Of a stretch of DNA of 64,000 bases, positions 8,400-61,634 are shown one piece after another. The stretch comes from Octopus vulgaris (taxonomy: Eukaryota): positions 13,144,001 to 13,208,000 of the forward strand of contig OX597815.1 of NCBI GenBank assembly GCA_951406725.2. The letters are read 5' to 3'. Under the pieces are notes generated by a model, which saw only the letters and a program-made list of their open reading frames with translations, had not been told where the DNA came from and ran no database searches. Every line of letters starts with the position of its first letter. The first letter of the stretch is position 1. The position numbers and the translations under genes were made by a program.

Positions 8400-9100
8400 C
8401 AATTGTACTAGATATTTTATTGGTTGAACGATATTTCGACTTTAAGTCTGTCTTTGCTGAGTTCAAAATATAAAGTGATAGAAATTAAAATTTAAAATAT
8501 GAACGAGAGAAACCATCGTCCACACGCTGATGGAATGACATCATTAGTCTTTAAGTTTCAATTTTATAACAGGCGAAAAGGGGACAAAAAGAAAGAGGAA
8601 AGAAAAAAGAAGAATATTTAATCAAACAGTTTTGTATGAATTTGATGGCATTCTGTTATTTTAATTATTCTTCCAGAGTGTAATGTTAATAACCCGAAAA
8701 CATATTTCTCCTCATTCAATATGAAATGTGAAAGTGAATCAGATTCAGAATAATTTCTGAGAATATGCACTTTCAACCCTTTTGCAAAATCGCAGCCGTT
8801 TGAAGCAAAAAGTTCAGCAGGTTAAGATGCCTGATGTCATATCTGTGCCCCATAAATCTTTTGTTTAATTGTTCTGTTGTACAACTATCATAAATCAAGT
8901 TGTGTTTCGTGCATTCTGCTACGTACGCCAGATTGGAATCTCTACATGCCCCACCTTCTGTAGAAATCATAACATTTCTGTTATGATTCTTGATGGAATT
9001 CACTTGACTCATATTGTTGCAAAATGAGCAGGGCTTACATATGTGCAGATATTCCAATGTTCGTTTTCTTGGAGTCAGAAGTAGAAGTCAATATTTCTCT
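8400..9100 (-). mobile_element. Penelope-like element 3' fragment: GIY-YIG endonuclease remnant plus pseudo-LTR end
   Basis: ORF 8773-9057 reads CKPCSFC...CRDSNLAYVAECTKHNLIYDSCTTEQLNKRFMGHRYDI (PLE endonuclease pattern). Downstream are a hammerhead-like junction (8424-8466) and AATAAA. Confidence 0.75.
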
Positions 9101-9603
9101 TATGTTCTTGTTCCGTCTAAAGTCTACAATACGCGACTGAGGAAGCATCTGTTCGAATCTCGGATATTTTTCCACCAGATTCTGATAACTTTCGTACAAC
9201 ACTTTTGAAATGCCAACGAAATTTAGTTGCCAGTGAATTATTAAATTGTGTCATCTATTGTATTTTGTTTGCTAAAATTATGCGTGAAGGTTTGACTGCC
9301 TTTGCTAATCTCAGCTATTCCATTTGCTATTTCCTTTAATTGTAATTCACTGTAACCACGCTTGACACAGATGTACAAAAGCATTTGCACTGCTTCCAAT
9401 AATCCAGTATATCAGTACAAGTCTGTTTTGTCCTCAAAAATCGGGGTTTCAGATTATACCAATATGATGTGGATGATCGGAGCACCGATGGAGATAAATG
9501 TGGGATGACGTGGGCTTGCAAAATAAGTCTGCCCCCAGAAAACTTAACTTTTGTGTCAAAAAATTCAACGCTAGTTGAAAATTATCCAAAAACATACAAT
9601 ATT

Positions 9604-10343
<740 letters not shown>

Positions 10344-11463: not shown

Positions 11464-11744
11464 CATCTGTGTGTGTATGTGTGTGTGTGTATGTATCTAT
11501 ATATCGATCTATCTATGTGTGTATGTATATATATATATATATAAACATAATCAAATAGGGTAATAAAATGAATTATTATTACCAGTGGCCTAGCACAAAA
11601 GACGAATTAGTCCTTAGACTATATATTATTCATATAGAAATATAATAAAGGGCTTCCAAATAAGGAAGCGTAGTGCGAGAAACACAAAAAGGGATAAATT
11701 CATGAAAGGAATGACAATTAAAAACATTTACCATCTCAGCTATA

Positions 11745-11820
11745 TCCCAGACCGAACGGTTCTACCTATTTTCAGCAAACAAACAGAATATATTTGCCAA
11801 GGCAAGGTTCTTCAGTGGGA
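11745..11820 (-). ncRNA. Type I hammerhead motif with one core lesion
   Basis: TCCCA-CTGAAGA-ACCT...AGGT-AGA-ACCG-tt-CGGT-C-TGGGA. All three stems pair and the triplet is GUC, but GAA reads AGA. Confidence 0.7.
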
Positions 11821-12015
11821 AGCCTTCGTAATTCTAGAAGCACAGACTGTTAGAAGCACATGTAGATATAACGGTTTGTATATCCTAACTTTTCAAACCT
11901 CTGCGCAGACGCAAATCCTACCCGGCGACAGAGAGGATGCCGGTAAAAATTTTACGAACAAAATTTGTGTTTCTAACACTACGCTTCCTTGTTTGGAAGC
12001 CTTTTATTATGTTTA

Positions 12016-12058
<43 letters not shown>

Positions 12059-13024: not shown

Positions 13025-13608
<584 letters not shown>

Positions 13609-20910: not shown

Positions 20911-20988
<78 letters not shown>

Positions 20989-22033
20989 GAGGGAATATTA
21001 TTCCAAACTTACAGGATAAATTTCAATCTAGAAATAATAAATCAAATTTCAAAAAAAATTTTTGTTATCTATGTGAACAATTTTATAAATTTTTAATTAT
21101 TGCAAATAATTATGTTTAACTCTACTACAGAGATAATTGACTTGGTAGAACATTATATGCAGTGGAGTATATAACTGGGAAGTTTCATACATATGCCTAC
21201 GCACAATTGCTTGCATGTGTGAGTCAAGTGGAAAAATAATATTCCCGTTCGTATACCCACACATATCAGCCATATATGAAGAATTGATAAAAGCGTATAT
21301 ATATGCATATGCACGTCTCATATTTATAAAACTCATTTCTATAGCATTGAATCTACATACATAATAGTATATTTACACAGAAACACACACAACCACACAT
21401 TCACACACGAGTCTGTGTATATCCATATATATATATGCATGTGTGTCTGTGTATCTGTGTGTGTCCGTGTGTTTGTGTGTGTGCGTGCGTGCGTGGGCAC
21501 GTACGTACGTGCTAAAGTGTGTGATGTTTAAATTTTTCAGATGTTGACCAGAAATATTTCAAATGTCAAATTTAGGTGTACTTCAAAATCAAAGGTCAAT
21601 CTCTATAACTTTGATGGCACACTGATGAAATGTATATGCAGGCGTTGAAATTCGCGTCAATTCATTTGACCTTTGGAAGTGGATAGTGAGATGGGAAGTA
21701 GGTGTACGTAGGAAAGATAAAAGTGAACACATCAGACACATGTATCCAACGTCATTGGTGTGAAAGATATATATATATATATATATGGAAATTAAATTTG
21801 CACAATCGCATTGATTGAAAAATATTCTTATATTCAAGTTTTGAAGTATGTTCCAATCGTGTGTTAGTGATATAGAGAAACGTATACATGCAATGGGTAT
21901 GTGGTGATTCTATGTTTCGATATTCGGGGTCTTATATGCATAGTATATATTAATCTTTGTTGCACATACATAAACTGAAATAATCACATGCATACATACA
22001 CAAACACACACGCTTACACAAAAACATGCATAA

Positions 22034-23103: not shown

Positions 23104-23450
23104 GGGAGAGTTCACGAAAAAAAAAACAACAAAAGATGAAGACAGGTGCTGTAGAATTTAGAAAGCAAACAGATGTGTTAGTATAACGCTGGGGAATTGA
23201 AAAATTTTTTAACGTTTCGAGCCTACGCTCTTCCACAGAAAGGAGCACAGAAAGAAACAAGGAGAGAAAGAAGGATAGAGAAATTGTGTGTAGTGGCTAC
23301 CCATCTATCATGGCGAATGCCGGACTGAAGGGTCACACAGGAGACGGCAGAAGTAGGGAAGATAACAAAGTAGTAGTGATCTCAAAACGAAGATGCGCGT
23401 GTGTGTAAGAGAGTTCGTATGTGCGTGTGAAAGAGTGCTGGTGATATACA
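23101..23450 (-). mobile_element. PLE pseudo-LTR fragment with A6U hammerhead motif (23207-23242)
   Basis: Homologous to 57641-57960; CTTT-CTGTGGA-A-GAGC-gtag-GCTC-GAA-ACGT-T-AAA. Confidence 0.8.
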
Positions 23451-28062: not shown

Positions 28063-28090
28063 ATGCATACATAATATATATATATATTTC

Positions 28091-29495
28091 ACCTTGTTTA
28101 AAGTGGCACTCTGTACTTTCCAACATGTGGCGGCATGTGCCACAGTTAGGCCGACCGCATTTTCTCACTTTGGTTCTTTTGTTAATGGATAATGTCTTGC
28201 TTTGGTTAATGTTTTTTCAATGATTTCGGTTGCATTTTCCTCTTGATAATTTTGTGTGAGACTAACATTTTTTTCATTGTTGTATCTCCTGTGATATTGG
28301 GTAGATTTCGGGTGATAATGTTGAAGGCTTCGTTGTTTCGAGGTTTACATGTGGAAATTTATGGGAGTATTTTTAAGTCTGGTGTTGTGTTTCGGTTGAC
28401 TTCCCTTAGTGTTCGTATGTCTGTTTCCTTTGTTCGTTTAATCCCATCATTTGTTAATGATGTTGGGTAATTTCACTTGATTAGTATTGATCAGACTTCA
28501 AGGAGTCTTCGTTCCCGAGTATTGGTGTCCGAAACTATGGTACAGATTCTTTTCGCTAGGTTATAGGTTTATTAATTTTTATGCGTCTGGGGTGGCATGA
28601 GTTGAATAATATTATTGTTAAGAATATGTGGGTTTATAGAAGAGGTCTGTTTCGATGTGGTTATTGACTATTAGGATGTCAAGAAAAATGAGTTGTTTAT
28701 TGCTGTATCCCATGGTAAATTGTATGTTGCTATTGATATTTTGCAATCTTGGAGTTTGTCCTTGCTATTTTTCCAGCGTACGCATCACTTATCTAAATAC
28801 CGCTTCTAGTTCTTTAAATAGCAATCAAATGAGGCGTCATATTTTTGTAGAGATGATTGGTATATTTTAAGTTCTAGGTAACCCATTAGAATGTTCGAGA
28901 TAACTGGAGCGGCCCGGGTTCCCATCGCAATTCCACATTTTTGTCGATAGTAGAATGCATCGAACATGAAATAGTTGTTCACTGGGATTAATTCCAGTGC
29001 TGAGATTATGAATCTGTGGTAGATGAGTCCTAGGATCTCTTCTGGGTATTTTTCTAGCCAGAAGGTGATTGCTTTTATGCAATGATCATGCGGGATATTG
29101 GTGTACGGGTTCTCCACATCGAATGCTACTAACAGGGTTCCTTCATTCATTGCCTTCGGGAGGTGGTTAAGCATGTCTAAGCCACCCCTGATGAAACATT
29201 TCACATATTTTAGAAACGTTTTGAGTAAGATGTCGAGGAAAATGCTCAAACAGTGAGTTTCACAGCAGGGTCCGCAATGATGGGTCCTTGTTTGAGATAA
29301 GTAGCGGGAGGAACATTAAAGCATATGCTTCGAGAATCTTTGCAAGCTTTATAAATATGTACATTTTTGTATATTTTAGGTAATCCGTAGAATGGACTAG
29401 CCCCGTATTTAAAATTGGATAAATAGTCAATTTTTGTTTTAGTGAGGCCCTTTCCATGTATTTGAAGTAAGATGGATAAGTTTTTAAGTGTCTTA
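28091..29495 (-). mobile_element. Penelope-like retroelement RT pseudogene fragment
   Basis: ORF 28806-29249 has FDVENPYTNIP and RQKCGIAMGTRAAP. Frameshifted continuation gives RYLD, IQFTM..FLDI..TDLFYKPT..NSCHP and KCGRPNCGTC. Confidence 0.92.
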
Positions 29496-29508
29496 TATAT
29501 ATATATAT

Positions 29509-29771
29509 ATATTATATTAAATTAGAGATAAAACCACTATTAGGCAAATCAAACAATGAAAAACTTAAGCCAATACATAAAATTAATTAATTTATATTAT
29601 TTTTAAAATATATCAAAAGTATTAAAAGTTTAATCAAAGATAATGATTAAACTTTTAATACTTTTGATATATATTTAAAATAATATAAATTAATTAATTT
29701 TATGTATTGGCTTACGTTTTTCATTGTTTGATTTGCCTAATAGTGGTTTTATCTCTAATTTAATATAATAT
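29509..29771. repeat. Near-perfect ~127-bp-arm palindrome at the 5'-truncated end of the PLE
   Basis: Arms at 29509-29636 and 29644-29771 with a 7-nt loop and few mismatches. The extension 29776-29850 resembles the reverse complement of 20985-21050. Confidence 0.93.
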
Positions 29772-29847
29772 AATATTTTACTATAAAATTGGATTCAATC
29801 CTTAATCTAATTTTTCCCTGTAAGTTTGGATTTATCCCCTAATATTT

Positions 29848-29885
<38 letters not shown>

Positions 29886-34849: not shown

Positions 34850-35400
34850 ATATATTTTGGCGGGGAGCTAGTTGAATTTATACTGCAGTTACGCTACTCG
34901 TTCCTCAAGTAAGTGTTTATCTGTTGACGCATGTCAAGTACATTTGCATAACGTATGTAATTTATCGAATGGTTGGGTCTTTTGACCATTTTTATTGACC
35001 TTCTTTGTTTTTATATTGTAGGTTGGTAAAGTGTTCCTGTTCCTTTCTTTTCCTTATATTTCCTCTTGTGTTTTGCAAATCTTCCATATAGGCTTCCGGA
35101 TGTCTCTCCTTTGTAGCTTTCGCAGCCACCCGGCATGGTTTCTCTATGTATCGAATGTTACACAGCGTGTCAAAGTTTGTAGCAGTTTCTATTAAAATTA
35201 CTTTTGAGCGTATGTTCCAGTTGTTCTATGTGCAAGGATTTTAATTGTTATGAGTTACTGAGGAGATACTTGTTCTACTACGGAGAAATCATTGGGTATG
35301 ATATCTGGGGATTTCCTTTTGATATATCAGCAGTTTCTTTATAGTAAATTTGGGAATAAAGAATGAATCAAAATATAAACAAACCTTGGCAACTATCTTT
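34850..35400 (-). mobile_element. Highly degenerate PLE endonuclease remnant
   Basis: 35050-35137 translates to PGGCESYKGETSGSLYGRFAKHKR, similar to C..YIGET.R.L..R..EH. Outer boundaries are uncertain. Confidence 0.45.
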
Positions 35401-35446
35401 ACTGACTGTTATTAATCTTTTCAGTTTCGATATAAAATAATTTTAA

Positions 35447-35490
<44 letters not shown>

Positions 35491-35494
<4 letters not shown>

Positions 35495-36076
35495 AAAACA
35501 AGTCAGAATAGAAAATGCTAAAATAATTTTATAAAGAACATTTCAGTACCGGTTTCAGTCTGAGGCTTTTTCAACTGTAATAATTAAATAATTAAATTTA
35601 GAAAAATTAAAAGGAACTCCTTCTCCTACCTTTTCCTTCCTAACCTTATCACTAATGCTTTTCATTATAACACCTACGCAAATTCTATGAACAAAACATT
35701 TAATAGATATATTTTCATGAATTGAACAGCAACTGCTAACCTCCACTGACCATTCAAAATACTACAATCATCGCACTCCCAAATTCTTCGTCTTCTTCCT
35801 CACCTTCTCCTCCTCTTTCTTCTTCTTCCGTACCAAGAATTCACAATGACCTCGAACCCACAAGAGTAAACAAGAGAGACAGAGACAGACAGAAACAAGG
35901 AAAAAACCACTTGTATTTGAACACTATACAAATATTTTTTTTAAAAACTTACCTTTTAATTTTTCTAAATTTAAGTATTCAATTGTTACAGTTAAAAATG
36001 TCTCAATGACTGAAACCGGTACTGAAATGTTCTTTATAAAATTATTTTAGCATTTTATATCTTGACTTGTTCTTTC
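35491..36076. mobile_element. TA-flanked element with ~125-bp inverted arms, each carrying a hammerhead-like motif
   Basis: Arms at 35491-35614 and 35952-36076; motifs at 35544-35577 (-) and 35989-36024 (+). Confidence 0.85.
35544..35577 (-). ncRNA. Minimal hammerhead motif with U3-A8 core
   Basis: CAG-TTGAAAA-AGcC-tca-GACT-GAA-ACCGGT-A-CTG; palindromic stem III, GUA triplet. Confidence 0.6.
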
Positions 36077-36106
36077 ATATATATCAACTCGTGTGTTTCA
36101 TTTCAT

Positions 36107-36155
<49 letters not shown>

Positions 36156-36271: not shown

Positions 36272-36853
36272 ACATCTCCCCACACAATACAAGGTATCAT
36301 AAAAGTTGAAGCACCTCAAAGGGCAATCACAAAAAAGATAGATGGCATGACAGGCCTCGACTATTGGGGTCGACTAGAAAAGCTAAAACTCTATTCTCTC
36401 CAACGTCGTCGTGAGCGCTACATCATCTGCATGATGTGGAAAATATTCCATCAGCATTGCCCAAATGATGTTGGCATCACCTTTAAGGTACATCCAAGGC
36501 TTGGGCCCCGTGCCATCCGCCCAAAACAAAAATCGCACTATCATCTCATAACAACAATACGGCACAATTATTTCACCTCAATTGGCCCCGCTCTCTTTAG
36601 CATTACACCAAAACACATTAAAACAGAAACTGACCCTATAGGGTTCAAGAAGTCTTTGGACAGATTCCTTCAAGAAATCCCGGATAAACCCCCTACACCC
36701 GGATATGTCTCTGTAAACAATAACTCTCTACTTGAGTGGGCCATAGTGCCCAAATTCTGACTTGAAAGACTTCACCAGGTGGTGCTATTAAGTTAGACAT
36801 GGCCTGGGCCAATAATGGCCGAAACCTATCAAAGTATCAAAGTATCAAAGTAT
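36272..36853 (+). mobile_element. 5'-truncated CR1-group LINE 3' end
   Basis: Open frame [32 protein letters not shown]...GPALF...[16 protein letters not shown]; 3' UTR stem-loop and (TATCAAAG)n tail. Confidence 0.9.
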
Positions 36854-40409: not shown

Positions 40410-40707
40410 AAGGCCATGTAGGGGGACATGGAGTTAAGTACAGGGTGGTGTTCATGTAAAGAGTTCAGGCCACTTGAGGTCCAGGGAGGCTTTGAACAAA
40501 GCGGTCGTCGGCATCTTCACCATCTCGTCTGGAACAAGCTGCCAGACGAGATGGTGAAGATGCCGACGACCGCTTTGTTCAAAGCCTCCCTGGACCTCAA
40601 GTGGTCTGAACTCTTTACATGAACACCACCCTGTACTTAACTCCATGTCCCCCTACATGGCCTTGCTATTTGCTTTTGAGCCAAATTAACTAACTAACTA
40701 ACTAACT
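40410..40707 (+). mobile_element. CR1 LINE 3' end with inverted self-duplication (123-bp hairpin) and (TAAC)n tail
   Basis: Arms at 40410-40532 and 40542-40664 with one mismatch. The forward part encodes WNKLPDEMVKMPTT..., as in the 42940 copy. Confidence 0.95.
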
Positions 40708-45660: not shown

Positions 45661-45665
<5 letters not shown>

Positions 45666-46117
45666 GAAGGTCTGAAAATGCAATTTTAGAGATGTTTATT
45701 CACTTGACCGTTTTCTCTTTTTTAGGAAATAGCAAACAGTCCTTAACTACGCACAAAAGAAAATATCAGAAAGACATGTCAGTTATTCCACTACAGTTTT
45801 TTGTAAATTCTTTGATATATCTTCTGTGGATTTATACACTACCAAACAAACATAATTTTTATTGAACTCAAAATACTTTTTGGAGTCACATTCTGATTAC
45901 TTTCTTACATAATTTCTTGTAAACTGTTTTTAACATTTTCTTATTATTATCAAAGAATGTATATCTGTATTTGAATACTTTGGTGATAACCGGTACTTAA
46001 CAGAACAAAGCTCATAAAAAGCTTTACATTTTACTTTCGACAATCTTTTTTCTGATAAAAGTGAAATCGGTCAAGTGAATAAACATCTTTAAAATTGTAT
46101 TTTCAAACATTCTTTCA
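45661..46117. mobile_element. TA-flanked element with ~60-bp imperfect inverted arms
   Basis: Arms at 45661-45722 and 46057-46117. They carry GAAA.CGGTC plus AATAAA and loosely resemble the arms of the 35491 element. Confidence 0.8.
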
Positions 46118-47234
46118 TATATATTTCCCCTCGTGCGGTACCTTACAAATTTACTTTGTTATATATGTATGCGTGGGGGTATGGGCGTGTGTGTATACAT
46201 AATACATATGTCGAAATGCATGTATGTATGCATGCAAGTATGTACGTATGTGCATGTGTATATGCATATATATATATATATAGATATGCATTTTTATAAA
46301 TATCTATGTGCGTGTGTGTATGTTTGTGCATTTGTGTATATGTGTGTATATGTGTGTGTGTGTGCGTGCGTATTGTGCATATCACTTCTTTCTCAGAGCA
46401 CTTCTGAAGTTTATGTTCTCCAATCATTCAGCATCCTATGGTTCTAACATAGGTACAACTTGGATTCCATTTTTACTTTTATTTTGATGCCCCCGCAGCG
46501 TCATCTGGCATTGGTCCTCAAGAAAACAAATAAACTTTCACAAGCTATGGTTTTACATTGTGTTGACCGCCCCCAAATCCTTTACATTGAACAGATTTTA
46601 CTTGAAGAAAAGTTAGTTGTCGATCACTCAACAATTAGCAGTCAGCACTTAATTACACGATTACGAGAAGACGGTTTATATCAGCTTATACTTAATTGGA
46701 CTTTGCTCCAATTAAAATTACACATATATTAGGGATCTATGATATACATCTCAATGAAGAGAATCAGTTGTAACTTCAATGAAATTCAAGCTCCCACAGG
46801 AAACAATATATATCAAGTGAATACCAGAGAAATGGATATCCAACTTTTCTATATGGACAAAATGACCTTGTACAGAGGTGGGTGGCGATATCGCTTTCGG
46901 TTAGGGGATGGAAAACGCGTTGAAACCACAAGAATTTTGCAGGCCGTTTGTGGTTAATTTCTATCATAATATATTCGTCCGCAAAATAGCTGAGGTAGAA
47001 TTGGCTTCACGAACAGTAAATTTAAGATTTAAATTTCCAGTTAAATATAGGCTTACAGGTGATTCAAATATGGAGCCACGTTAGAATGCACAGCGTCTGC
47101 TAAAACTTTTCTATTTTAAAGTAATTTAAGAATACATAGCTGTTCATTCAATTTATTTTCAATACAACACACAAAGGTACACACATATATCTATGTAGAT
47201 AAAGAAATTTACATATGGGTGTGTTTGTGAGTGC

Positions 47235-47280
<46 letters not shown>

Positions 47281-47929
47281 AAACATATTAATGGAATCGA
47301 CGGACGCAAAGATCAGATTTTACCTCGAAGCAAAAGTAATATATATGATAAATATAACCAATAAATTTAGTCTCAATATATACTTGGTATATAATGCACA
47401 CACATAGACACATCACTGCAGCCGCTTGCATACAGACAAAACTTATTGAAATTGAATTGTAATAGGCTGATGGATTTTGACTTACGTCTTATGTGTATGT
47501 GTCTATGTGTGCTTGACTCTGTGTGTGTGTGTGTGTGTCTTAGTTTGCATGCATAAATTTGTTATATTTCCGTCAAACCTGAATTAATATATGTGATACA
47601 AATATTTCACTGTGTCTAAAGCTGATTGAAATGTATAAAAATATGGAATGTGCAACAGATATATCCGAGCGAACAGCTTTCTAACAAAAACCACATGAAA
47701 AGCCACACAATATTTTTATCAGTAAAATTTATGAGCGACAAAGACACTATTAATACCAAAACGTAATATTTAATTCTAACTTATGGTTAGAGCGCCGAAT
47801 ACTGCACTACTTACCTTGAGAAAACACCTCGTATGTACGCCTGGTGCATAAGAGCACACATTTATCTCATTAGACAACGACAATTGTCTGCTACGACGTT
47901 CGGAACAGCCAGGTTGCGACGCACCTCGT

Positions 47930-48480
47930 CCTTTCACTGGCGAACGTCCAGTAGTCACATACTGGGTACCTAAAGGTCAGGGATAGAAGGAATTTGTCTG
48001 TTCAGGCAAATGCTGAAAATCGTCAGTATGCATATTAATGCCCTCATATTGATTGCAGACGAGTTTCATCTGTTACAGCACCGGAACTGCCAGCGATATA
48101 AAAATATGTGCTTATATGCACCATGCAATCATATGAAAGGCTTTCTCGAGTTTAATAACGCAGAATTCGATGCTCTAGCTATATATCCACCTTCAAAAGG
48201 ATGTCACGCTTGAATTTGGCACATTATCCTGTTTCTATCACTAATAATTATTTCTTAATAATTCTGTGGGATATTTGCGACATGAATGCATGAATGGCGA
48301 CTGAAATTTCATACATCGCTGCCAAAGAGTTTTGGCTGTATTCGGTTACCAGACACCTGTCACTAGGACGAATGTCTGTGAATACGTCAACATCACTTGA
48401 TACGATACATGCACTGCACGTAGCAAATGGTTGTCCGCCGCTCGCACTATAAACATGAGTGTACTTTTGCATCATGCGTA
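47930..48480 (-). mobile_element. Possible very degenerate Tc1/mariner transposase remnant
   Basis: Scattered motifs only: SGGQP..DR..LAAMYEIS, QDNVP, SIPDL..CDYW. Confidence 0.3.
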
Positions 48481-48615
48481 CATATGTGAGGTTCCCTCAA
48501 AAGAAATAGTGCAGGACTTGGCGCTCTATACCACTGCATAACCGTATGAGGTTGGTATTTGTGTGTGTGTGTATGTATTTGTATGTATGCATATGTATGT
48601 ATATGTATGTACGTG

Positions 48616-48697
<82 letters not shown>

Positions 48698-48903
48698 TGG
48701 GTACAAAAAATTCAGGGTGATTACTTGATAACTGTACGTTTTCCCAAATTTATAATGTAATACATGTCTTTCGTGTGGTAATTGTGCGCGGCTGAAGAAG
48801 GCTATTGACATACATATTACATCAGTTATGCATTGATATAAACCGTCTAATAAAGCCAGAAACATATGTACCGCTAAATCCTTTGCATCCTGTTTTTCTT
48901 TTC

Positions 48904-48968
<65 letters not shown>

Positions 48969-50562: not shown

Positions 50563-51122
50563 AAATGTATGTGTGTACATTGTGTGTGTTTATGTATGTA
50601 CACATGTATGTATATGTATGTATATGTGTGTCTGAATTCGTGCGGTGTTAGTGGGTGATGCACACACCTGACGGTTACGGTATGTGCGAGTCGAATTGAC
50701 CCAGTCATGATATCAGCACGTTGATTAACTTCATAAATTGAAAGAGACGAGTAAATTGAATATAATTTTGGTGTAGCACGGAGTAAGACGGCTAGATATT
50801 TAAATAGTTAAGTAACCTATCCGTTGGGCCTTTTCACACTTTCTGCATTACACATTTCACTAACAAATCTAGGTCATCGTCAGGCGACGTTAAATACTGT
50901 CTCGAAAGAGGTGCACAATAATATCGAAGCAAAGGATTCCTGATTCCATTGTGAACGTATAGGCGACACTACCTTTCACACATGCACTCATCCACGCACA
51001 CACACGCACTCATACACATATACATACGTATACATACGTGCATACATCGGTGCATACATACATATATCCGTAGATACATATATTGATGTATGTATGCATG
51101 CATATATATATACACACATATT

Positions 51123-51620
51123 TAATCATATCAAAGGGAAATAGAAATTAATTCAAATTTACATTTCCAATGGTCTAACGTGTAAAAATTTAGTCCAAAA
51201 GACCATACATTAGTCATACTATATGGTGTATATTTAGACACATCAGAAATCCACTCATGGGGAATTCAGCATGCTAGAAAGAACAGCTAGGTTCTATAAC
51301 CACAAAAGTAGGGATAAAATTCGCCAAGAACGAAATGAAAAATAAAAACAGTTTACCATCTAGTTTCCTGGATCAATTGGTTGCTGATTTTAGTTTAGCA
51401 AGTAAAGGAACCCGCCAGGCGCAATCTTCTTCAGCAGGACCGCTTGGAGTTAAACGTATACACACTGGGCGATCAAACTACTTACCCCGTATTTATACGT
51501 CCTAACGTTTATTGCCTTCGCCGACAATAAAAAAATGCCGACTTTTAAAACCGAAAAATTATGCAAAAACTTACAGAGTGTTGAATTACTATGAGTGGAT
51601 TCCTCATGTGTTTAAATATA
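51123..51620. mobile_element. Second copy of the 9604-10196 TIR element, inverted, with right arm truncated
   Basis: Same terminal arm; the interior is the reverse complement of about 9740-10085. Confidence 0.85.
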
Positions 51621-52810
51621 CATACACAAATACATAGATGCCTGTATGCATGCATGTATACATACATACATACATACATACATACATGCATGCATATAGT
51701 GACATACATATATATATATGTACATACATACATACGTAGGTACGTACACACATACATACCTGTAACATAGTTAAAACTGGGATCTCATCGACTGGCACTT
51801 CTATAATACCCATTAATTAATTTCTCAGGTAGAAATTTTGGCAATCTGCAATGCTCGTGTGAGTATCACTATGGAAATGTGTTTTCACACCGGGGAATAT
51901 GTTGCTGCTGCAAACACAAATACTTTAGACCATGTGTCACCCTTTTGATTGACATAAAGTCATTAATGCAACACGTTGAAACCTGTACTGTCACATTTCT
52001 CTATTTGTACCGTTACGATAACCGCTCCAGCTACTAGTTATTAATTGGAATAATGTCAAATTCATTCAGACATTCTTCTTCTACTTTTGCAGAACTTTCT
52101 CTACACCATTGCTGTGTCCAAACCCCAATCCCAGCAATACTCTATTCTTGAGACCATACGTTTTAGAATGTCAACCTTTCTAAAATTCTTCCATGATACT
52201 ATCTTTCATAAGGGTGCTAGCTGCAATGTTCTAAAGCCGATATTTATGGTATCAACAACCCATTGAACAAGACAATCTGTGAAAACCATCGTCCTTGACT
52301 TTTCCTTCAAATGCAGAAGGCGAAATAATTTAAACATTAAAACTTACTTATGCATTGTTTCTGTATTTTAAAGTGTCATATGTTTCTTTCATTTGTATCT
52401 ATACAATGATATGAAATTGATAATCTTTACTTTTATTGCTTAGGGAACCATTTTGTCCGCCGTGACGATTCCAATTAATTATAAAAAGATTATCTTGGAG
52501 CCATATTTCTCCCGAAGGGTGATTTGTCTGTTGGCTCGGAAGGCTGGGTAACCACATAAAATGATGAATGCAAAGAGCCTAATCACCGATAACATAGTTT
52601 GTTATAACGTACCTGTTGGTAATTAAAAGTGAATTATGTGAGTATTTTGCTCAAAGACGAGTAAACAATGTAATAATATCATAGAATTAATAATCCTTCT
52701 AGCCAGGCATATTTTAAATGTAAATGAAAAGAAATACTTTATCATTAAAGAGTAATATCTAGAAAAATGCCAGACATGCTTCACTCTCCATGCATTTTGT
52801 GTTATATATG

Positions 52811-58571: not shown

Positions 58572-59451
58572 TGTATGTTTGTGTGTATGTGTATGTACAT
58601 GTGTGTAGGTATATACATACTACATACAACATGTAGCTAGTATATAAGAATATAAGAATACAAGAAACGCCGCGTCAATATGACAATTCAGAATTTAAGA
58701 GGTAAGAAAGAGAATACTAATCAACTTGCTTGACGACGGCGCAAAATCTTTTCATATTCTCCTCAAAAGGTTTCGAATAATTTTTTAGCTTAATGCTAAA
58801 TTATTCATATATATATATATATATATATAAGATTATATAAAATTCCATAGATGTATATGTGCGTATGTGTGTGATAGAGGGAGATACTGTGAGAGTGAGC
58901 GAGAAAGAGATAATGAGTAACGATACATGTATGAATGTCTCTGCATCCCTACAAATACACTAAGTGCAAAGTTCTCTTGAATTCTATGCTGACGTCTGGT
59001 GCACTGCTATTAAAGTTAATCTGCTGAAATACGTTGTTACTTGCTTAAGGAGTTGCTTCACAAACACACGCTCATAAACATAATGTAATATATTATATTC
59101 TTCTGTGAGATTTGACGAAATAAATCTATTCCATTTATCAAATGAACCAACTATTAATACGAAATCAAATTGTAAAGTGGTGAATATTTCATTCATGAGT
59201 GTATCGTTAATGTAATTTTGGTGTCACAAGATTGGACATTAAATTTCTTCTACATCTTGCTTTACCACCCTCTACAAACGAACATTCTATCGAGATTACC
59301 TACTAAGATTTGAGTTTACCGAATGATGTGGTAAAAACAGTAGCAATATACCTCACAGTGTTGTCCAAAGTTGAACCGTATATTCTACAAAATGAACTTC
59401 AAATTAACTCAAAGCTACACAAATCGGTTGAGCCTATTATAATTTTGAGTA

Positions 59452-59975
59452 CCGTAAATCCTCGAGTATAATCCGCATTTTTTCCGCAAAATTTAAAGAT
59501 CAAAATCCCTAATGCGTACTAAAGACGAGGTTAAAAATGAAAAATATTTCCTAAGCAATGTCCGAGTCTCTATTTGCTGTCCAGCAATGTTTATTCACAC
59601 GCATTTTGTGATGTCGGACGCGAAAAAATACCTTAAGCTAAGACTGAAAGCAATGAAGTCATAAAAGAATCATCCATAACTTGCAGTAAGCAACATTTAT
59701 TAAAATAAAAGTATTCATAACACAGAATAACATGTAACAAAAACAATTTGCAAACATATTTACATTCCCATATAACAGTTAAGAACATCACCATTATTGT
59801 ATTACGCATGCGCGGAAGTATTTGTTCGACTAGGTGCTGCTGGCTTAATTACGCACGACTCAAGTTAGAGAAGGGGTGCATATTATACAAAAGGTTTATG
59901 GTTTTCAGAGGCACATCCCCCTAAAAATCCCTTGCGTATTATACTCAAGGGCGGACTATACTCGAGGATTTACGG
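59452..59975. mobile_element. pogo/Tigger-like MITE
   Basis: 25-bp TIRs CCGTAAATCCTCGAGTATA(A/G)TCCGC (24/25 match); TA on both sides (59450-59451 and 59976-59977). Confidence 0.92.
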
Positions 59976-61634
59976 TACGTCTCCTTACGCAGACATAAGC
60001 ATCAAAAGCCATTATAAAATTGTGGTACATGATACGCTTGGCTTTACTTAATATGCTTTGAAACAATGCGTATATTACTAATATTTTTTGAAATCCTGCA
60101 TTTGAGTTTGAATATTTTTATTTCGAAACAAATAATTATAATATACAACTCACATTTGTTTATGTTTATAAGATTAGATTAAATAATTGCAAGATCTACT
60201 CCTTTTTTTTCTATAGATTACGTATGAGATATTTTGATATAAATATCAGTCTAAAATCGGTAGCCCGTTCAAAAGTTAATGAAAATCCTACATTGTTTGT
60301 CATTTTGTAAAAATCGCTACGAATTTGATATAGCGTTCGTTAAGATATTAAGGATCAGTTGATACTGAAAATATGGTAGAAAGAAACCGAGAGAGAATTA
60401 TCATGACTAGAATGCCGGCCGAACGATAGTTTTTTCCGCACACAGAAGTATATTTCTCAGCCTGCACACATGGCAGGAGGATGCATTGACTAAGAATTTC
60501 CTCATTATAGGCTTTAAATACATAATGCATCGTAGAAAGTATAAAACGTATTTCCACGGACACTCAGAAACAATCTAATTTTCAAATACTCATGAAAATA
60601 CATGGCTTTGCAGAAGATATGAAAGTATCACTAAAATGAACAAGAGAACAATACAGATAGATACAAGTATAAATATCTCCATTGACATAGCTACTGACCT
60701 GCATAGAATATGTTTACAATTATTGCTCTGCACGAAAAATTACGATAGAACCATCTTAAAATTACTTCAAAACATGAAACAAACATTTGCATGGAATTGA
60801 ATATTTTCTTACCATATTCGACGTTCATATTCATTCCCTAAAAATAGAAATCATTCTGAATAATTCTGAACTCCTAGGAATCTAGCTTTCACTGAAAGCC
60901 CCAATAGCTTCTTTCTCTACGGAAACAGTTTAATTACATGGTTTCTACGTACGAAACTGTTGTGTGGACGCCTCCAGACGATGAAGTAGGCTAACCCAAT
61001 ACGTACATATAGAGGAAGAAGCCTAGACGTTGGAGAGGGAAGAGAAGACTAGAACAGTGTAGAGTGGAAAAGACTTGAGTAGACGACATCCGAACGTGCG
61101 ACATAACAGTGGTGACAAGGATTTCGTAGCTGATACAGCCACTGTGTAGTATTGCGGTATCACAGGAAATTACAAATGAGATTCGTAAACTAATGTGAAT
61201 GATAGACTGTTGGCGCGTGAAACGTAAATTTTCAAATCAAAACGCAGCAACATTAACGTAGAAATATAATACTTAACCGTATGAACACAGTAATTAAATT
61301 CCTAGAACCTGAGAACTAGGTAAAATATAATAATTCTAGAGCATGAATATAATGAATAATCATCACACAAGCATATTACTTTCTAGTGGAAACCCTCTGA
61401 CGTTCTAACGTAATCTCATCCATGACTTTAGTAACCCATAAATAATCCTCTCGAAATAATATCATGAGTTTTCAACTTGTAACTTACTAAGAAACCTAAC
61501 GTAGAGGACACAGTTTGCCCCAAATATAAAATTATTTAGACATGAACCATTCTGATTCCTGTCAACTTATTAAGGCTTTCAACACCATCTTTATTATTCC
61601 TCCATATAATCATGGTTTCAAATTTTCCCACAAA

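Follow-up and report, generated by a model that had tools for sequence, protein, structure and literature searches.

Overall structure of the insert

The window, a 64,000-nt stretch of Octopus vulgaris contig OX597815.1, is ~33% G+C and rich in TA repeats and repeat families. The element under study, insert C, occupies the region 35491..36076 and is bounded by two inverted arms, 35491-35614 (+) and 35952-36076 (-), which are identical at 113 of 126 aligned columns (10 mismatches and 3 gap columns). A blastn comparison aligns them over 124 nt at 90.3% identity, and within the window only these two arms match. They enclose an interior of 336–337 nt. The left arm, whose sense strand is minus, is interpreted as the 3' end of a long pLTR copy; it is untailed and directly abuts a 42-nt (TA)n tract on the left target side (35449..35490). 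The right arm, in plus sense, is interpreted as a second, shorter copy of this 3' end in inverted orientation. It is followed by a 33-nt extension (36077..36109, +), a PLE-type tail consisting of a short TA run and 25 unique bases, and only then by the 38-nt (TA)n tract of the right target side (36110..36147). The tail is present at the right arm only, making the layout asymmetric. The first-pass annotation of this region described ~125-bp inverted arms between TA tracts; the arms and the tracts are indeed present, with the correction that the extension separates the right arm from its tract. If the arms were identical at insertion, insert C would be about 11 million years old, based on 10 mismatches at 123 positions and a rate of 0.0036 per million years taken from Bonar 2026.

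The tail recurs in a second insert of a related family, insert D (45662..46150), which has the same end and tail as insert C, inverted arms of 72 columns and a different interior, and retains only the second half of a hammerhead. In a pairwise test, the tail of insert C, together with the 3' half of its arm, aligns with the end of insert D (46.05-46.15 kb) with a score of 173, compared to 93.6±12.6 for shuffled sequences (0/2000 as high), and this alignment is the best non-self match among 2554 tiles. Both tails share a short TA run and the hexamer that comes after it. Since a homologous tail is found in insert D (at 46.1 kb), the tail belongs to the element. A four-way MAFFT alignment was poor and was not used for this comparison. 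The interiors of inserts C and D have no homology, and no relation was found between insert C and inserts A, B, E or F, some of which are described below.

Hammerhead motifs in the arms

Each arm of insert C contains an outward-pointing motif composed of a 3-bp stem I, a 7-nt core, a short stem II, the sequence GAAA, a palindromic stem III and a GUA triplet. The left motif (35544..35577, -) is of the minimal type I and has a complete U3-A8 core (35574-35568), with a predicted cut after 35547; its stem II contains one mismatch and a 3-nt loop. The right motif (35989..36024, +) has a mismatch-free 3-bp stem II and, flanking it, a single U, with a predicted cut after 36021, and carries both U3 and A8, together with an A at core position 5 (35994). 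Thus, of the U3-A8 hammerheads initially proposed for both arms, an outward motif is present in each, while the complete core is confined to the left arm and the right one has the G5A change.

We searched the window with a minimal-hammerhead descriptor that requires an intact core and was composed after the motif had been seen. With at most one stem II mismatch allowed, it returned a single match, in the left arm (mean 0.05 and maximum 1 in 100 dinucleotide shuffles); no match was obtained with a perfect stem II, and 5 matches were obtained when one core change was allowed, compared to 0.925 in 40 shuffles. The expectation for the descriptor is ~1e-4 per arm. A broader hammerhead scan was noisy (15 cores, versus 3–12 in 15 shuffles), and its matches were therefore accepted only where stems and position agree. 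No Rfam hammerhead model reached its gathering score in the window, and none of the 10 Rfam matches with E up to 10 in 35400-36150 belongs to a hammerhead family.

The predicted fold of the full-length insert RNA is dominated by pairing of arm on arm, with energies of -169.6 and -209.6 kcal/mol (z-scores of -21 and -14 in 20 shuffles). The local hammerhead fold is disfavoured on both sides, at +5.6 versus -7.3 on the left and -1.9 versus -5.0 on the right. Self-cleavage at insert C is unlikely, as the arm-on-arm fold of the whole transcript would bury both motifs. An active type I hammerhead requires a stable stem II, which is broken in the left motif. The G5A change inactivates hammerheads. 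U3-A8 variants keep partial activity; our literature searches found no activity data for U3-A8. The published hammerhead consensus keeps G5 (Cervera and De la Pena 2014, supplement), and minimal motifs are described in the same work as not cleaving as monomers and cleaving weakly as same-strand dimers. Each strand of insert C holds one motif, such that the same-strand partner for a dimer fold is absent. Cleavage is, moreover, reported to be unnecessary for insertion of an element from Anolis (Frangieh 2024).

We also considered selection on the ribozyme. The arms share an identical run of 49 nt (P ~0.04), yet 4 of the 11 difference events fall in core 1 and stem II, leaving such selection unsupported. 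The hammerheads of insert C are most likely inherited passengers that would not cleave at this locus. The expectation of functional hammerheads on both strands, with transcripts that cleave themselves, is accordingly not supported: the right motif carries G5A, stem II of the left one is broken, and both are buried by arm pairing.

The neighbouring endonuclease remnant

A GIY-YIG endonuclease remnant of a PLE is located next to insert C, at 35050..35127 (-). It was recognized with a frameshift-aware profile built from 8 related proteins, scoring 39.2 compared to 20.3±2.9 for shuffled sequences (0/100 as high) and ranking second among 354 window tiles. Pfam did not detect it, and a profile-free search gave a single match, to a tandem-repeat protein, which is an artefact. 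The weak PLE endonuclease remnant reported earlier beside the insert is, therefore, real. No support was found for the proposed tie between the two, as the 3' side of the remnant has no homology to the arm or the interior of insert C in either orientation (168/300, 27/300 and 132/300 shuffles gave equal or better scores). Remnant and insert are best regarded as distinct insertions that would share a TA tract.

Coding capacity was also sought in the interior of insert C. By eye, it might represent the C-terminus of a GIY-YIG endonuclease; its profile score is 22.0 compared to 19.8±2.7, with 15/100 shuffles as high, and neither tblastn with 12 proteins nor a six-frame Pfam search gave an endonuclease end. 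The arm was not found beside any of the PLE remnants tested in the window, and no parent PLE with the arm 3' of its ORF was found. Two GTDB scans gave 0 and 0 matches, this collection being uninformative for an animal element.

The window contains other PLE remnants. An RT remnant at 28082-29494 (-) has, among 12 matches, a protein of Octopus bimaculoides as its best named relative (58% identity for 28.1-29.5 kb). Beside it, at 29503-29882, is a 275-nt palindrome with a one-sided extension that recurs at 20946-21022 and holds the motif GTAAGTTT. Another remnant, at ~8400-9570 (-), extends from the RT thumb to the GIY-YIG domain (profile score 53.6, 0/100 shuffles), with a decayed hammerhead-like stretch visible by eye near 8440. 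On the other side of insert C, an open frame at 36290-36760 (+) is silent in Pfam; we take it to resemble the 3' end of a CR1/L2-type LINE. The end of another LINE forms a 255-nt palindrome at 40410-40664 and is also present at ~43.3 kb.

A splice-donor motif at the junction of the two copies

On the minus strand of insert C, the arm homology ends exactly at a donor-type motif, AG|GTAAGT (35947..35954, read from 35954 to 35947), which is positioned at the junction of the inverted copy and the long copy, with GTAAGT at offset -1. Counted from the GT of this donor, a stretch of 378 nt ends in an AG immediately 5' of the left hammerhead core. The putative acceptor is moderately pyrimidine-rich (0.6). 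These motifs delimit a putative GT-AG intron of a pLTR 5' UTR (35575..35952, -), comprising the interior together with the innermost 40 nt of the left arm. A comparable arrangement has been described for Penelope of D. virilis: its intron reaches as far as helix I of the hammerhead (Cervera and De la Pena 2014) and is part of the pLTR promoter region, beginning 46 bp after the transcription start (Schostak 2008). Because the donor-to-acceptor layout matches that of D. virilis Penelope, the interior of insert C would most simply be the retained 5'-UTR intron of the long minus-strand copy, and the right arm the inverted short copy.

Over both strands (128 kb), the window contains the AG|GTAAGT 8-mer 3 times and likewise the 10-mer GTAAGTTTTT 3 times, the latter in every case at such a junction (inserts C, A and A2). 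A total of 10 inverted inserts were examined, and the count below was restricted to the six with a whole or half hammerhead (C, D, A, A2, E and F); inserts B, F2, H1 and H3, in which no hammerhead was shown, were left out. GTAA lies within 10 nt of the junction in 5/6 inserts (offsets -1, 4, 4, 8 and 10), five inserts that represent only two independent families, in a pattern that was noticed in insert C and then looked for elsewhere. The background frequency in that offset range is 7.4% for GTAA and 0.5% for GTAAGT. Inserts D and E have GTAAAA instead of GTAAGT, and insert F has no donor. The probability of finding GTAAGT by chance at two or more of 8 arm boundaries is between 1e-5 and 3e-4.

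Inserts A (9577-10200, hammerhead at 9912, +), A2 (51105-51625, hammerhead at 51434, -) and E (11545-12025, hammerhead at 11815, -) form one family with hammerheads of the C3-G8 type. Its members are ORF-less units of ~450 nt in which a donor, a putative intron of ~110–150 nt and a hammerhead are followed by the 3' end; every unit also has an inverted 3' arm. Their long copies are related throughout and begin at one shared aligned donor (A2 and A are identical at 359/480 positions, E and A at 264/453), while their inverted arms measure 147, ~72 and 62 columns for A, A2 and E, respectively. In a four-way alignment, the boundary of this family falls at the GT itself. A stop at the branch point was considered as the cause of the junction; it fits insert C and is rejected, given the position of the family A boundary. 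Only ~6 nt separate the inner arm ends of A and A2, a distance that is also compatible with copying as a unit. The outer extension of insert A is an inverted copy of its donor region (9577-9607 and 9741-9771, 31 nt, 96.8%), as if the unit had been derived from a tandem or circular template; such an origin would make it an intron-bearing retrozyme-like element.

Several further inserts carry hammerheads or hammerhead-like motifs. Insert F (13121-13480) is a palindrome with a complete C3-G8 hammerhead core in its centre, at 13283 (+). The inverted arm of this insert terminates a few bases downstream of the predicted cleavage site. A short insert between TA tracts at ~48694-48907 (+) has an intact-core hammerhead at 48792 with a long stem II, and no inverted arm. 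Members of a dispersed repeat family at 23238 (-), 57762 (-) and ~10940 (-) contain a minimal hammerhead-like motif with at least one core change. No hammerhead was seen in two elements with short or diverged inverted ends, at 59449-59978 and 47784-48533, which are possibly true derivatives of DNA transposons.

Proposed origin of insert C

Insert C has two inverted arms, a one-sided tail, a hammerhead motif in each arm and a donor exactly at its inner junction, and the same layout is seen in other inserts of the window. We consider it probable (roughly 0.6) that insert C is a decayed, ORF-less PLE insertion into a (TA)n tract, in which two copies of one pLTR end were joined at their 5' ends at integration. 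The long copy, of ~460 nt on the minus strand, would comprise the splice donor, the retained 5'-UTR intron, the hammerhead and the untailed end; the short copy, 125 nt plus the 33-nt tail on the plus strand, would be an inverted, truncated 3' end. We infer the following sequence of nicking, dual priming and joining. The RT-endonuclease of a PLE, acting in trans, would nick both strands of the TA tract, and two cDNAs would be primed at two neighbouring initiation sites, with and without the tail. The long cDNA would end at or just before the donor and the short one after 125 nt, and the two 5' ends would then be joined via a microhomology of 1–4 nt. The inverted repeat would thus be a by-product, rather than a site for a transposase. 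Against this origin weigh the silence of Rfam, the failure to find a parent PLE and the absence of a donor in insert F; in D. virilis, moreover, the 46 bp from transcription start to intron exceed the 0–10 nt seen at the junctions described here.

Several features of this scheme have precedents in published work. In vitro, the purified PLE enzyme of Anolis extends both target strands from two neighbouring RT start sites and is predicted to form a dimer (Frangieh 2024, where the PLE tail is also described). An inverted 5'-truncated copy, a tail of 30–40 bp at one end and a preference for (TA)n are given as the layout of PLEs by Craig 2021. A 31-bp tail on one of the inverted pLTRs, and truncated members flanked by inverted pLTRs, were described by Arkhipova 2013.

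Alternatively, insert C might be a MITE-like retroelement, one of a non-autonomous family whose members move as a single unit including both arms. It would possibly have arisen from an inward read-through RNA in which splicing had joined the GTAAGT donor to an acceptor within a longer inverted PLE insert, and which was then retrotransposed via the tailed end. The location of the arm boundary exactly on AG|GTAAGT, with its three occurrences in 128 kb, and the two copies of family A that share an interior and have nearly coincident arm ends favour such a family, and PLE ends can mobilize intervening sequence in trans (Arkhipova 2013). However, the related insert D has arms of another length and no homology in the interior, insert E bears a different arm on a related long copy, and the RT would have to cross a hairpin of 124 bp. 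In inserts A and E the donor is, moreover, on the hammerhead strand and is, therefore, read naturally as the element's own intron. Overall, we regard movement as a unit as rather unlikely. An ordinary complex insert with the opposite polarity, in which the long copy is on the plus strand, the interior is the end of the ORF plus the 3' UTR, the truncations are random and the donor is fortuitous, appears improbable. It would account for the tail on the right copy, for the absence of a donor in insert F, and for the existence of short, randomly truncated ends with a hammerhead at ~48.7-48.9 kb; it fails to explain why the interior lacks an endonuclease C-terminus (15/100 shuffles) and why GTAAGT recurs at no fewer than two of the 8 boundaries (1e-5 to 3e-4 by chance).

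It is very improbable that insert C is a MITE of a DNA transposon, with 125-bp TIRs targeting TA and a hammerhead-like motif that arose by chance. TA on both sides, arms that are 90% identical, the lack of coding capacity and the silence of Rfam are all compatible with a MITE, and many TIR and MITE families are reported in octopus genomes (Bonar 2026). In contrast to the symmetric TIRs expected of a MITE, however, the tail is one-sided and conserved in insert D. The descriptor expectation of ~1e-4 per arm also argues against a fortuitous motif, this very core has been reported in a PLE (Cervera and De la Pena 2014, supplement), and the same layout is found with hammerheads of the C3-G8 type in inserts A, E and F. 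The hammerhead layout, the one-sided tail and the (TA)n target thus bear out the first-pass annotation in assigning the arms to pseudo-LTR (PLE) ends, rather than to the TIRs of a DNA transposon. An assembly artefact, or a local inverted duplication of unique sequence, is hardly credible: the surroundings are rich in microsatellites and there is no third copy in the window, but the arms differ at 13/126 columns and a homologous end is located 10 kb away. Two other element types were rejected. For a DIRS-like element, the tail and the start of the left arm were compared with the interior, with 101/300, 153/300 and 240/300 shuffles scoring as well. A non-LTR retrozyme requires tandem same-strand hammerhead units, and the window shows only two inverted arms.

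Within the preferred origin as a PLE insertion of two joined pLTR ends, the start of the long copies at the donor could be explained if the RT of the PLE copies a splicing intermediate consisting of the intron plus exon 2, or stops at the donor, while the second enzyme of the dimer primes the inverted short copy on the opposite strand of the target. We regard this as quite unlikely and offer it tentatively. The retention of introns in PLEs has been called unexplained (Craig 2021). If the splicing intermediate is indeed the template, these inserts would be a fossil record of the PLE template, which would explain why introns are kept, and a class of MITE look-alikes would consist of twin-primed solo pLTRs. 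Should pLTR-sized 5' ends pile up at the donor genome-wide, they would provide a handle on intron retention and template choice in PLEs. We found no report of PLE 5' ends clustering at a donor, nor of a MITE-like PLE family, in a literature search that covers a minority of subscription papers. The donor-start pattern is the only lead here that could be new.

Comparison with known systems

The opposite-strand layout and the U3-A8 core are not new: both are contained in Cervera and De la Pena 2014, and opposite-strand hammerheads in inverted PLE ends have thus been in print since that year. That study describes dual minimal hammerheads on opposite strands 100–700 bp apart and counts ~1,300 U3-A8 motifs in S. 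mansoni. It also presents one PLE-linked U3-A8 example with the UUGAAAA core that is also found in the left arm of insert C, as well as a truncated PLE whose 5' end bears a second, opposite-strand motif. Insert C resembles the minimal hammerheads of Cercyon in Schistosoma mansoni in its U3-A8 core, short helix I, palindromic helix III and pairing on opposite strands at a distance of 100–700 bp. It differs in its stem II (3–4 bp, compared to 7–8 bp in the main Cercyon families), in the damage to both motifs and in its cephalopod host.

The pLTR of Drosophila virilis Penelope has a GT-AG intron that ends at helix I of the hammerhead, as inferred for insert C, along with inverted terminal repeats of variable size and a tail of ~34 bp, similar to the 33 nt of insert C. 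However, the intron of insert C, as delimited by its motifs, is 378 nt long compared to 75 nt, exon 1 is missing, and the core in D. virilis is C3-G8. Non-LTR retrozymes (Li 2026, preprint) are, like insert C, ORF-less, derived from PLEs and equipped with a type I hammerhead. As described there, retrozymes are head-to-tail tandems whose same-strand hammerheads are able to dimerise, whereas insert C has one motif per strand. With MITEs of DNA transposons, insert C shares its short length, lack of coding sequence, inverted ends and TA flanks; it is distinguished by the asymmetric tail, the retroelement-type ends and the variable arms in related inserts. Annotation tools based on TIRs probably label such inserts as MITEs.

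The arm motif of insert C has no match in the supplement of Craig 2021. The hammerheads of the Hydra clade listed there have one U on either side of stem II, and the right arm of insert C resembles them in that a single U flanks its stem II. In the same supplement, Penelope-13_HM of this clade carries one hammerhead per strand, ~100 nt from either end, because it includes an inverted truncated copy. Like this element and the other PLE complex insertions (Craig 2021, Fig. 2; Arkhipova 2013), insert C has an inverted truncated 3' copy at the 5' end, a tail at one end and (TA)n flanks, with hammerheads on opposite strands ~60–100 nt from each end. Unlike them, it lacks any ORF, and its long copy is only the size of a pLTR and starts at a donor motif. 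In summary, insert C is real and is probably an ordinary complex insert of a PLE, with damaged hammerheads.
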